Notes: generated by a model from the letters alone, not told the origin. Positions 24,062 through 32,000 are shown, counted from the first letter of the stretch. The stretch: DNA of 32,000 bases from Vibrio cholerae ATCC 14035 (GCF_000621645.1 NZ_JHXR01000010.1:26483-58482), one strand, 5' to 3'. Made by a program: numbers and translations.

Positions 24062-24087
24062 AATGCCCACCTTCATTGATGGGCATT
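24062..24087 (-). terminator. Rho-independent terminator ending the TAXI-TRAP-lhgO operon
   Basis: Stem AATGCCCA / TGGGCATT with a 10-nt loop. On the minus strand it is followed by TTTTCTTCAC. Confidence 0.8.
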
Positions 24088-24094
24088 GAGAGGT

Positions 24095-25306
24095 TCAAGC
24101 GAGCGATTTTTCCGCGATTTTATCGCACAGATATTCGCCGATTGGCATTGCGGAAGTGGCCGCTGGAGAAGGCGCGTTACACACATGCAAACTGCGCGGA
24201 CTTTCGGCAAACAGAAAATCGTGCACCAGCGTACCATCACTTAATACCGCTTGGGCACGAATGCCTGCAGGGTAAGGCTGAAGATCCGCGAGTTCGATAT
24301 TTGGGCAGTATTTACGTACCAACTGTAAGTAGCCCGCTTTCCACCATGAGTTTTTCATTTCGACCATACCCGTTTTAAAGTGCTTGGCACTCACTTTCCA
24401 AAAGCCGGGGAAGCAAACCATCTCCCACACATCGCGGAGGCTAACATTCCATTTGCAATAACCTTCACGCTTAAAACCTTGTACGGCATTGGGACCAACG
24501 GTCACGCTGCCATCAATCATGCGAGTTAAATGTACGCCGAGAAACGGCAATTCAGGATCCGGAATCGGGTAGATAAGATGACGCACCACTTGGTTATGCT
24601 TGGGTGCCAAACGATAGTATTCGCCACGATAGGGGATGATCTGAAAATCGGTCGGCAAACCGAGCATCTTGGTTAAGCGATCGGCCATTAAGCCTGAACA
24701 GGTGACCAGAAATTTGGCCTGATAACTCACGCGTTGGTTCTTCTGTTGGCAAGTTAGCGTGATCGAGGATGGCGTTTCTTCCAAGCCCACCACTTCCGTG
24801 CCTATTTTCACATCACCCCCCAACTGCATAAAGGCTTCGGCCATTTTCTCGGTCACCAGACGATAATTGACGATACTGGTCGCTTTCACCAAGATCGCCC
24901 CCAAGCCACGAATATTGGGCTCCGCCAGCTTCAACTGCACGGCATCCAGTTTTTCAACGTCGATCTGATTTTGTAAGCAGCGATCATAGAGTGCGTGCAT
25001 GCGTTCGAGTTCTTGCTCATTGGTGGCCACCAGTAACTTGCCGCAGTTTTCCACTGGAATATTGTGTTGCGCGCAAAACGCCAAAGTGCGTTCGACTCCG
25101 CGTTTACAAAAATCAGCCTTCAAACTACCAGGAGCATAATAAACCCCCGCATGGATCACCCCGCTGTTGTGACCAGTTTGATGGCGGGAGAATCCCGCCT
25201 CTTTTTCCACCAGCAGAATCGATTTTTCCGGATAACGCAGTTTCAGTTGCCAAGCCGTGGAGACACCGACAATCCCACCACCAACAATCACGTAATCATA
25301 AGTCAT
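24095..25306 (-). CDS. lhgO: L-2-hydroxyglutarate oxidase/dehydrogenase (FAD-dependent, LhgO/YgaF family)
   Basis: 403 aa. Dinucleotide fold VIVGGGIVG. Long collinear blocks match remembered E. coli LhgO (HQTGHNSGVIHAGVYY, LIYPIPDPELPFLGVHLTRMIDGSVTVGPNAV, CNAPSPAATSA). The start overlaps the permease stop (ATGA). Confidence 0.9.
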   Translation of the reverse strand: MTYDYVIVGGGIVGVSTAWQLKLRYPEKSILLVEKEAGFSRHQTGHNSGVIHAGVYYAPGSLKADFCKRGVERTLAFCAQHNIPVENCGKLLVATNEQELERMHALYDRCLQNQIDVEKLDAVQLKLAEPNIRGLGAILVKATSIVNYRLVTEKMAEAFMQLGGDVKIGTEVVGLEETPSSITLTCQQKNQRVSYQAKFLVTCSGLMADRLTKMLGLPTDFQIIPYRGEYYRLAPKHNQVVRHLIYPIPDPELPFLGVHLTRMIDGSVTVGPNAVQGFKREGYCKWNVSLRDVWEMVCFPGFWKVSAKHFKTGMVEMKNSWWKAGYLQLVRKYCPNIELADLQPYPAGIRAQAVLSDGTLVHDFLFAESPRSLHVCNAPSPAATSAMPIGEYLCDKIAEKSLA

Positions 25307-30295: not shown

Positions 30296-30423
30296 TATAC
30301 CCAAACAACTTGGAGTTGCAGGTAGGCGGCAAGTGAGTGAGTCCCCATGAGCATAGGTAGACTATGTGATTGGGGTCAACGAACGTAGCCAACACCGCTG
30401 CAGCTTCAAGTAGGAAGGGTATA
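30296..30423 (+). repeat. ERIC-type imperfect palindromic element, copy 2, between the divergent dctD-like and dctB-like genes
   Basis: 128 bp, TATACCC...GGGTATA. Roughly 80-85% identical by eye to 7520-7648. It starts 17 bp from the dctD-like start codon. Confidence 0.85.
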
Positions 30424-30568
30424 CTTGTTGTGCGGCTAAAGTAAGCAAATTTGTCGAGCTTGGAAAGGAGCCGCCTCTCACTTCTGAGTTACCCGTCATT
30501 AACATTTATCGCTTTCGTTGCTAAGTTGAACCGTCAAGCTCGGTGCTCGTTTTAAATAGGGAAATGCT

Positions 30569-32000
30569 TTGAAGCTCAATAAAGCAAGTTGGATAGTGTT
30601 GGTGATTTTACTGCTGATCGCGGTGCGATGGGGTTCGCATGCCGTCAGTGAAAACTGGCAGCTGAGGCAAGCGCAGCGCCACGGCGAACAGCGTTTGCTC
30701 GATTACATCAGTGATGTGAGGCGCACCCTAAGCCGCTTTTATCATTTGCCCTACTTGATGACCAATGAAGCCAACACACTCAAACTGTTTCAGGGCGATG
30801 ATCGCCCGCAAGCCCAATTACAGCAACAATTGGCGCAACTCGATAAAGCCGCGAATACCAAAGGTTGGTACATACTGACGCTTTCCGGTTCACTGCTAAC
30901 GGCCAGTAAAAATGCTGAAAACTGGAAGCTCTCTGATGGCAAAGCCATCATCCATAAAATTTTGCAGCAGCGCGAAGGGATTTCGATTGTCACCAAATCC
31001 GTTGGCAGCACCCCCACCTATTTTGTTGCTGCGCCAGTTTATCTGGATGTCGAGATCGTCGGCGCGGTTGCCGTACAAGTGGATTTAAACGTGCTTGCCG
31101 ATCAATGGTTTGCCAGTGATGAGTTGATCCTTTTTCAAAATTCTCAACGCCATTATTTTCTCTCCAGCAGTTCAGTTTACAGCGCAGACTGGATAGCGAC
31201 TCACCCCGAAGTGGTCGCAGCGGCGCAAAAACGTAGTCTATTTGATGGAACACGCCTAACACTGTGGCAAGTCGAACAAGCGCCTTATCTTGCCCAATCC
31301 GTCACGCTGGATGATCTGAATTGGACGCTCACTTACCTCACGCCGCTGAAAAATCTTAATGCCACGGTTAACTGGATCAGCACCAGTGCCATGGTCGGCG
31401 TATTATTGCTGCTATTACTGATGCGTCTGCGTTACGAGCAGTATCAAAAGCGCCTCAGTGAAGCCAAGATTCAACACGTGTTGTTTGAGGCCGAAGAGCG
31501 CCAACGCAATATGATCAACAAAACTCATGTTGGGCTGCTGCTGATCGATGGACAAGGCCGCATTGAAGAGATCAATCCGATGGCGAAGCGCTATTTTAGC
31601 CTCTCGGACAGCATGGTGCGTCAGCTGCAAGCTTGGTCGCTGTTTGATACTGGAAACCCGAATGCCACCGTGCCACTGCTGCTGAAAAATCTCACCGAGC
31701 ATCAAGAGCTGGCCGACATCACCAACGTGGAAACGGTTGCGCGGCGCAGTGATGGCAGTTTGTTTCCGGTGCTGTTCTCCCTGATTGCGGTCAGTTGGAA
31801 AGATCGCCGCCACTATTTGGTGACACTGATTGATATCAGTAAACGCAAGAAAGCGGAAATCGCACTACAGAATGCCAATCGCGATTTGCAACAGCGAGTA
31901 GAAGAGCGCACCGCAGCGCTGAAATCCGCTCAACAAGAGCTGATTGAAGCGAGCAAAATGGCCGCACTGGGACGTATGTCAAGTGCGATTACCCATGAGC
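30569..32000 (+). CDS. dctB: DctB-type sensor histidine kinase, 5' portion (runs off the window)
   Basis: Open frame from TTG 30569 (in-frame TAG at 30557) to the window end; absent from the ORF track because it has no stop. N-terminal TM, about 280-aa periplasmic domain, second TM (MVGVLLLLLLM), PAS-like region, and H-box ..LGRMSSAITHE at the very end. Confidence 0.8.
   Translation, partial: MKLNKASWIVLVILLLIAVRWGSHAVSENWQLRQAQRHGEQRLLDYISDVRRTLSRFYHLPYLMTNEANTLKLFQGDDRPQAQLQQQLAQLDKAANTKGWYILTLSGSLLTASKNAENWKLSDGKAIIHKILQQREGISIVTKSVGSTPTYFVAAPVYLDVEIVGAVAVQVDLNVLADQWFASDELILFQNSQRHYFLSSSSVYSADWIATHPEVVAAAQKRSLFDGTRLTLWQVEQAPYLAQSVTLDDLNWTLTYLTPLKNLNATVNWISTSAMVGVLLLLLLMRLRYEQYQKRLSEAKIQHVLFEAEERQRNMINKTHVGLLLIDGQGRIEEINPMAKRYFSLSDSMVRQLQAWSLFDTGNPNATVPLLLKNLTEHQELADITNVETVARRSDGSLFPVLFSLIAVSWKDRRHYLVTLIDISKRKKAEIALQNANRDLQQRVEERTAALKSAQQELIEASKMAALGRMSSAITHE

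Follow-up and report, generated by a model that had tools for sequence, protein, structure and literature searches.

The TAXI-TRAP transporter PMI1055 of Proteus mirabilis was the subject of a 2023 study by Roden et al. which, by its title, reportedly deals with membrane-anchored TAXI binding proteins. It is the only TAXI-TRAP system to have been reconstituted and is reported to be specific for 2-oxoglutarate and 2-hydroxyglutarate (PMC12344293). A transporter with a TAXI solute-binding protein (VCA0144) and a fused permease (VCA0146) is encoded on chromosome II of Vibrio cholerae, and the present analysis concerns its locus, VCA0141-VCA0147, in a stretch of 32,000 nucleotides from strain ATCC 14035 (GCF_000621645.1 NZ_JHXR01000010.1:26483-58482), here called the window. 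In it the transporter genes are followed by lhgO, encoding an FAD-dependent L-2-hydroxyglutarate (L-2-HG) oxidase/dehydrogenase, and an earlier note made from the sequence had read the arrangement as a sigma-54-controlled module for the uptake and oxidation of L-2-HG. With moderate confidence, we favour the reading that the locus serves the regulated uptake and oxidation of a C5 2-hydroxy- or 2-oxo-dicarboxylate from outside the cell, namely L-2-HG, probably with 2-oxoglutarate.

The likeness to PMI1055 lies in the pairing of a TAXI binding protein with a fused QM permease and in the reported 2-oxoglutarate/2-hydroxyglutarate chemistry, which is that predicted here; the difference is that the P. 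mirabilis binding protein is, going by the title mentioned, membrane-anchored, whereas VCA0144, which lacks cysteine, carries a signal peptide that can be cleaved and occurs in the periplasm and biofilm matrix. VcGluP/GluQM of V. cholerae (VC0430/VC0429) and TtGluBP of Thermus have the same fold and family as VCA0144 (8S4J/9IBO and 1US4; E = 1e-28 to 1e-35). They bind glutamate, whereas VCA0144, which lacks cysteines and was crystallised ligand-free, binds neither glutamate nor glutamine, and its cargo was reported as unknown (Potapova et al. 2025, PMC12718363). According to the same work, VCA0144/VCA0146 is the one TAXI-TRAP system of V. cholerae besides GluP. VC0430 has neither a sigma-54 system nor lhgO nearby (PMC11574862), whereas VCA0144 has both.

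The enzyme gene is also known from other settings. In the glaH(csiD)-lhgO-gabDTP cluster of Escherichia coli, which encodes the same enzyme (58% identity), GlaH, encoded directly upstream of lhgO, makes the substrate inside the cell. The csiD-lhgO pair of Pseudomonas putida, dedicated to glutarate and lysine catabolism, again encodes this enzyme, whereas here lhgO follows a high-affinity importer and no glaH/csiD is present in the window or at the 80 related loci. In P. putida W619, lhgR-lhgO is controlled by a GntR-type repressor induced by L-2-HG, is independent of csiD and has been read as serving the catabolism of external L-2-HG (PMC8206213); control there is cytoplasmic and no dedicated transporter was described, whereas the locus studied here has a periplasm-sensing sigma-54 two-component system. 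The DctB/DctD systems of rhizobia and V. cholerae resemble the latter in the DctB-like sensor domain, the GAFTGA activator, the palindromic sites and the -24/-12 promoter before a transporter gene, and differ in their target, which is dctA or a major facilitator superfamily (MFS) carrier there and a TAXI-TRAP operon containing lhgO here; the kinase is a paralogue and its specificity is presumably different.

In the searchable literature no TAXI-TRAP system, this one included, was found linked to lhgO, and neither an L-2-HG-specific TAXI protein nor an L-2-HG-sensing two-component system was found described. What is new with respect to that literature is the operon architecture, in which lhgO is coupled with a high-affinity importer and a sensor facing the periplasm and not with csiD/glaH. 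The component families, the mapped promoter and the solved structure of the binding protein are already known; as a kind of system the locus is not new. Whether it had been characterised was left undecided in the earlier note; it has been in part, through the apo structure, the mapped promoter and deletion mutants without a biofilm phenotype.

Linkage of lhgO to the transporter genes

Three genes lie on the minus strand of the window in the order VCA0144 (27618-28625, 335 aa from ATG 28625), the fused TAXI-type QM permease gene VCA0146 (25303-27444, 713 aa from ATG 27444, with an alternative TTG at 27468) and lhgO (24095-25306, 403 aa), which should be VCA0147 by gene order. The identities given to them earlier held in profile searches: the binding protein scored 332 bits with TIGR02122 (cutoff 84) and 352 bits with PF16868, the permease 768 bits with TIGR02123 TRAP_fused (cutoff 320) and 233 bits with Pfam DctM, and LhgO 613.6 bits with the NCBIfam equivalog NF008726 (cutoff 299), with a match to Pfam DAO. 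The permease also distantly matches solved TRAP membrane components. The other features described earlier were likewise checked in the window and are present at or near the positions given for them, among them the ATGA in which the stop of the permease gene (TGA) overlaps the start of lhgO (ATG), read from the sequence at 25303-25306 (minus strand). The sequence GGGGAG lies about 10 nt upstream of the lhgO ATG.

Residues 7-13 of LhgO, VGGGIVG, fit the FAD motif GxGxxG, and the protein matches the L2HGDH of Drosophila (PDB 8W75) with E = 1.4e-96. The residues of the Drosophila enzyme (dmL2HGDH) that bind 2-oxoglutarate/L-2-HG, namely S88, H92, Y289, L299, H302 and R393, are strictly conserved in homologues (PMC10726252), and all six are kept here as S48, H52, Y246, L256, H259 and R350. 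The same enzyme does not use L-malate, L-lactate or D-2-hydroxyglutarate (D-2-HG) (PMC10726252). Judged by this conserved active site, there is no reason to doubt L-2-HG as the predicted substrate of LhgO.

The genomic context was compared across the 80 closest loci, taken from 185,579 species genomes at one genome per species, in which the binding protein is 61-99% identical to VCA0144. The fused permease gene is directly downstream of the binding-protein gene in all of the loci that extend past the latter (78/78). The lhgO gene is found beside the transporter or its kinase gene in 29 of the 80 loci, which belong to Vibrionaceae, Moritella and several genera of Oceanospirillales. In 26 of the 80 it follows the permease gene on the same strand (Vibrio and Salinivibrio 13, Marinobacterium 4, Neptuniibacter 3, Moritella 2, and one each of Oceanospirillum, Motiliproteus, Balneatrix and an Oceanospirillaceae metagenome-assembled genome), and the gap between permease stop and lhgO start is at most 75 nt in 25 of these 26, with a 4-nt overlap in two. 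In three further Vibrio loci lhgO stands beside the kinase gene instead. All ORFs neighbouring the transporter in the 80 loci were clustered and no other enzyme gene was recurrent; the neighbours are housekeeping or unrelated genes. The linkage of lhgO is strong and recurrent, not universal.

The arrangement beside the kinase gene takes two forms. In Vibrio sp. Of7-15 (locus L025, 13282-16685) lhgO immediately precedes the kinase gene, 2 bp away and on the same strand, while in V. penaeicida and Vibrio sp. S9_S30 (L021, 15441-15616; L022, 15540-15768) it is divergent from the kinase gene, with a sigma-70-like TTGACA ahead of it.

A neighbour-joining tree of the binding proteins separates a Marinomonas clade and a second Enterovibrio/Grimontia paralogue (24 loci in all), with neither a two-component system nor lhgO nearby, from 56 loci that are mostly linked to a two-component system (here the two-component group), 29 of them with lhgO. 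Enterovibrio and Grimontia have two TAXI-permease paralogues (L018 versus L029 and L043, Enterovibrio norvegicus strains), one with the two-component system and the other with no regulator, promoter or enhancer motif, adjoining a CheV-like gene and a very large ORF. In Marinomonas algarum (L076; 9828-10781 and 11306-12331) two tandem TAXI genes, whose products are 67% and 61% identical to VCA0144, precede one permease gene.

No csiD-like gene had been noticed in the window, and a search with E. coli GlaH (tblastn, E <= 1) bore this out, with no csiD/glaH match in the window or in the 80 loci; the search covered the loci and not whole genomes. A second CsiD query, which scored 508 bits to PF08943, likewise gave no match there. 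The remaining genes of the window encode a TagA/M66 protease, peptide deformylase, Mrp antiporter, UspE, TnaA/TnaB and a GGDEF protein, with no glutarate hydroxylase among them. As for a csiD gene lying just outside the window, which had been named as a possible internal source of the substrate, the sister species V. metoecus served as proxy: the 6 kb beyond its kinase gene encode unrelated proteins (lytic polysaccharide monooxygenase/GbpA-like, DUF3316, MFS and GDPD), and no csiD/glaH, so that judged by this proxy the objection fails.

These data bear on the alternative that the cargo is another organic acid (a C4-dicarboxylate, glutarate, 2-oxoadipate or other) and that the adjacency of lhgO has nothing to do with it. 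Such an explanation draws on the homology of the kinase sensor to the C4-dicarboxylate sensor DctB, on the annotation of the regulator for C4-dicarboxylate transport, and on the fact that a ligand of VCA0144 was never identified within a family of diverse substrates (glutamate, 2-oxoglutarate, orthophthalate; PMC12344293). It is nevertheless considered improbable, since linkage to lhgO, a single-copy gene, in 29 loci from several families goes far beyond what chance would give, and since the active site of LhgO is that of an L-2-HG-specific enzyme, the characterised L2HGDH rejecting malate and lactate (PMC10726252). A glutarate cargo, moreover, would need the GlaH/CsiD that is absent from the window and the 80 loci.

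The binding protein VCA0144 and its predicted pocket

The binding protein encoded in the window is residue-for-residue identical to PDB 9IBP, which is VCA0144, and 99% identical to V. cholerae entries. Its signal peptide ends at AYA, followed by AEE, and it has no cysteine, hence it is not a lipoprotein. A ribosome-binding site, GGAGAG, precedes the ATG at 28625. The published numbering of VCA0144 (351 aa) begins at TTG 28673, which is probably not the start, as only about 17 nt of leader, without a ribosome-binding site, would be left after the promoter.

The pocket of VCA0144 was deduced by alignment to the glutamate-binding VcGluP and TtGluBP, using their published contacts, the paralogue being about 30% identical and VCA0144 having no liganded structure. 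The contacts that hold the backbone of the ligand are kept (VcGluP Y45/S75/Q93 corresponding to VCA0144 Y58/S89/Q107). E125 of VcGluP, which is in contact with the ligand's amino group and indispensable to GluP, is N137 in VCA0144; further changes are H123 to W135, D157 to T173 and Y200/M201/V202 to T215/P216/A217, and an extra Lys-Asn pair, K169-N170, stands before the SG loop. The loss of a carboxylate together with the gain of a lysine would explain why VCA0144 does not bind glutamate or glutamine. The pocket so predicted would be more positive, as expected for a ligand of charge -2 without an ammonium group, such as 2-oxoglutarate or 2-hydroxyglutarate.

The predicted pocket positions are essentially invariant in all 80 orthologues, with or without adjacent lhgO or regulator, and therefore the cargo, whether one ligand or several, is probably common to all 80 transporters.

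A role of VCA0144 mainly outside transport, either as a biofilm-matrix protein or as a co-sensor for the kinase, with the permease and LhgO secondary, is highly improbable. Binding proteins acting as co-sensors are known, as for DctB/DctS of Bacillus subtilis (PMC12718363), but the genes for binding protein and permease are adjacent in 78 of 78 loci, mutants lacking VCA0144 or VCA0146 showed no biofilm phenotype and the matrix contains far less VCA0144 than GluP (both PMC12718363).

Promoter, candidate enhancer sites and two-component system

The -24/-12 promoter that the earlier note placed ahead of the three genes corresponds to TGGCATCTTCTTTGCT at 28701-28716 (minus strand), the sole match to TGGCAYN5TTGCW in the 32 kb, where 0.18 would be expected by chance. 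In the work of Dong and Mekalanos (PMC3439928) the RpoN peak of VCA0144 in chromatin immunoprecipitation sequencing (ChIP-seq) is exactly TGGCATCTTCTTTGC, and RNA sequencing (RNA-seq) gave a 4.9-fold RpoN-dependent change. As the promoter in the window is identical to this published 15-mer, it has experimental support. A -24/-12 element also precedes the orthologue in 33 of the 56 loci of the two-component group (background 0.025 per 300 nt).

Upstream of the promoter are two palindromes, a proximal one at 28766-28785 (ATCAGCAAGATTTTGCTCAT, minus strand) and a distal one at 28911-28930 (ATGAGCAAAATTTTGCTCAT); the latter is perfect (10 + 10 nt, 100% complementary) and contains the TGA stop codon of the regulator gene. 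The common motif, T-N-R-GCAA-N4-TTGC-Y-N-A, was found upstream of the orthologue in 31 of the 56 two-component-group loci (background 0.022 per 450 nt) and recurs in Vibrio, Oceanospirillum, Amphritea, Marinobacterium, Pontibacterium, Balneatrix and Halomonas. The distal palindrome is identical in V. metoecus, with close variants in other genera. Promoter and palindromic sites are thus conserved across genera at more than 20-fold above background, and the two palindromes are candidate sites for binding of the regulator.

It was considered whether loci without an adjacent regulator also lack promoter and enhancer sites, and for Marinomonas this was ruled out by a promoter variant and two enhancer-like sites: the sequence TGGCAC-N5-TCGC occurs in 8 of the 18 loci, and the palindromic motif, mostly in two copies, upstream of the TAXI gene in 10 of the 18. 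Since promoter and sites are kept, the design of the regulon appears the same and the regulator is presumably encoded elsewhere in the genome; the Marinomonas TAXI gene is probably controlled by such an orthologous activator. The Marinomonas loci noted with the variant promoter are L038, L039, L042, L047, L050, L053, L056, L071 and L073, most with two palindromic sites about 80 bp apart.

The activator itself, at 28927-30279 (minus strand), is of the NtrC/DctD type expected by the earlier note, with receiver, sigma-54 AAA+ and HTH_8 domains (Pfam Response_reg, Sigma54_activat, AAA_lid_14 and HTH_8) and GAFTGA in its translation. Its matches in the PDB are NtrC-family regulators, and as it reaches none of the NCBIfam equivalog cutoffs, NtrC, AtoC, ZraR and the other named regulators are ruled out. 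It is known as VCA0142 and annotated as a C4-dicarboxylate transport regulator (PMC2836559).

The sensor kinase gene, VCA0141, begins at about 30569 and runs beyond 32000, being cut by the window end at the H-box. A place on the minus strand was ruled out: the reading frame is on the plus strand, divergent from the regulator gene. The assignment to the DctB type was sustained, as the 477 N-terminal residues comprise a transmembrane helix, a periplasmic DctB-like tandem-PDC domain, a second transmembrane helix, a PAS domain and the start of the H-box, and the periplasmic-domain profile matches the DctB sensors of V. cholerae (3BY9, E = 3.3e-29) and Sinorhizobium meliloti (3E4O, E = 2e-13). As the single sequence matches V. 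cholerae DctB only weakly (E = 1.5e-4), the kinase is a DctB paralogue. The full-length orthologue of V. metoecus has 684 aa and a HATPase_c domain.

The spacer between the binding-protein and permease genes measures 173 bp and holds a strong hairpin at 27577-27602 (minus strand, -19.8 kcal/mol). A strong G+C-rich hairpin, mostly of -15 to -35 kcal/mol, is found in this spacer in nearly all 80 loci, though its sequence is not conserved; a U-run follows some copies (e.g., L002) and not others. The element is likely an attenuator or mRNA stabiliser; such a hairpin is the usual device by which more binding protein than permease is made, and it probably has that effect here. The terminator said to close the unit is also present, as a hairpin at 24062-24087 (minus strand) with a 10-bp G+C-rich stem and the U-rich tract UUUUCUUC after it (-16.2 kcal/mol, z = -3.0, none of 200 shuffles folding as well); a simple terminator scan did not pick it up.

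The permease gene is intact in the window. In V. metoecus OP3H (L001, 11158-13324) and Marinomonas rhodophyticola (L039, 11029-13195) it is split into two overlapping ORFs, by a frameshift or a sequencing error. Residues ~515-600 of the permease form an extra hydrophilic stretch starting LAESQLVDLMVSGQLPEQAK, the DctM match taking 496 residues for 409 model positions, and this stretch is also present in the Marinomonas orthologues.

In the divergent region between the regulator and kinase genes lies a V_AS5 repeat (30295-30419, plus strand; Rfam RF02818), an imperfect palindrome of about 125 nt that scored 95.5 bits (gathering score 96; E = 1.5e-21; minimum free energy -52.6 kcal/mol, z = -6.4). 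It resembles the ERIC/IRU-type intergenic repeats. A second, weaker copy is found in the window at 7519-7644 (plus strand), upstream of tnaA, and V. metoecus has two (L001, 8204-8328 and 637-760), the four copies showing 93% mean column identity; the repeat is not in the loci of V. owensii or V. tapetis. The flagging of VCA0142 for an unusual 5' untranslated region (PMC2836559) may be due to it.

Last, directly downstream of lhgO is a gene for a TagA-related M66 metalloprotease with Peptidase_M66 and TagA domains (19980-23963, minus strand); its listed TTG start gives 1327 aa, and an internal MNKKPLTLLIAGLLGSTSAWA looks like the true signal peptide. A match to the cspA thermoregulator (Rfam RF01766) lies at 3297-3717 (minus strand; 112 bits against a gathering score of 78).

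Proposed function and its alternatives

In the module favoured here, the DctB-type kinase would sense the compound in the periplasm and phosphorylate the sigma-54 activator, which would bind the two T-N-R-GCAA-N4-TTGC-Y-N-A sites and open the TGGCAT-N5-TTGCT promoter. The soluble TAXI protein VCA0144 would then capture the ligand and pass it to the fused QM permease, and LhgO would oxidise the imported L-2-HG to 2-oxoglutarate, which would enter the tricarboxylic acid cycle. The hairpin after the binding-protein gene would probably keep the binding protein in excess over both permease and LhgO. That L-2-HG should be the physiological cargo and not a by-product is suggested by lhgO being the sole retained enzyme gene, staying with the transporter through rearrangements at tight spacing, overlapping the permease gene as ATGA in V. 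cholerae, and being predicted to be silent without an external inducer. Precedents for the uptake of 2-hydroxyglutarate alongside 2-oxoglutarate are the TAXI-TRAP reported from P. mirabilis and, for the D form, KgtP of E. coli.

Several observations weigh against this assignment. The earlier note had looked to co-occurrence of lhgO and transporter, with csiD absent; csiD is absent from all loci and lhgO is linked in 29, but 51 of the 80 have no lhgO within 10 kb, despite the same pocket residues, and 27 of these belong to the two-component group of 56. Given the invariant pocket, either such genomes carry lhgO at another place or no dedicated enzyme is needed for the main cargo, and the 51 loci fit 2-oxoglutarate, which needs none, at least as well as L-2-HG. 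Translational coupling of permease and lhgO, also claimed, is borne out by the ATGA of the window, but among the 80 relatives by only two. The separately placed lhgO genes of L021, L022 and L025 have no recognisable sigma-54 promoter or palindrome upstream, and the 80 closest matches (at least 61% identity) do not include the locus of P. mirabilis. The pocket argument rests on alignment to a paralogue of about 30% identity and not on a liganded structure, and the ligand, like the signal sensed by the kinase, is deduced from genome context and sequence.

The transcript belongs among these points. Of the claim that the -24/-12 promoter drives three genes, the promoter is borne out by the published RpoN site and the three-gene unit is not: the RpoN RNA-seq table, which gives multi-gene operons as ranges, lists VCA0144 alone (PMC3439928), and the strong hairpin lies in the spacer behind it. 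No candidate inducer was present when the cells for that RNA-seq were grown. One transcript spanning the three genes is plausible.

The main alternative is that the transporter is essentially an importer of 2-oxoglutarate, with LhgO as an accessory that removes L-2-HG made from the imported 2-oxoglutarate by malate and lactate dehydrogenases, or salvages L-2-HG carried incidentally. This is judged rather unlikely, though it is a serious rival: 51 of 80 loci without a linked enzyme gene and an invariant pocket are what would be expected if the substrate enters central metabolism directly. Its regulation would resemble that by MifS/MifR, the sigma-54 system for 2-oxoglutarate of Pseudomonas aeruginosa. 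The P. mirabilis TAXI-TRAP has been described as alpha-ketoglutarate-specific (PMC11574862) and, in another source, as binding 2-oxoglutarate as well as 2-hydroxyglutarate (PMC12344293). KgtP of E. coli, too, imports 2-ketoglutarate and D-2-HG (PMC12297413), and lactate and malate dehydrogenases promiscuously make L-2-HG from 2-ketoglutarate in human cells (PMC8206213). Other features fit this alternative poorly: lhgO is the sole recurrent enzyme gene and stays clustered through rearrangements, whether after the permease gene, beside the kinase gene or upstream of it; the ATGA overlap suggests that the enzyme is needed in step with transport; and a repair enzyme under a ligand-induced sigma-54 promoter would be absent from uninduced cells.

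Within the favoured module for L-2-HG and probably 2-oxoglutarate, a stricter form can be put forward tentatively, as a possibility short of likely, in which the system would be dedicated to high-affinity scavenging of external L-2-HG, with VCA0144 specific for L-2-HG and VCA0141/VCA0142 sensing it outside the cell. In a phenotype array of V. anguillarum alpha-hydroxyglutaric acid gamma-lactone was not used, a result that is uninformative because the compound is the lactone and the genotype is unknown.

VCA0144 is an orphan TAXI protein with a 2025 structure, V. cholerae has no more than two TAXI systems including its own, and the genomic context narrows its candidate cargoes to L-2-HG, D-2-HG and 2-oxoglutarate, all of which can be purchased. 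Should L-2-HG bind, the locus would provide a bacterial route for the uptake and sensing of L-2-HG, of a kind not found described in the searchable literature. TAXI proteins of solved structure would then have a second class of ligand, and a periplasmic sensor domain for L-2-HG would be available from nature. Should only 2-oxoglutarate bind, it would be an ordinary C5-dicarboxylate importer, with lhgO as a repair or salvage enzyme wired to the transporter. In either case the class of cargo would be settled for a TAXI subfamily that is widespread in marine gammaproteobacteria. Sources of L-2-HG include hypoxic or acid-stressed host cells and the bacterial and plant breakdown of lysine; if the stricter form of the module is correct, V. 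cholerae and many marine gammaproteobacteria would treat L-2-HG as a nutrient or as a cue of host or niche.

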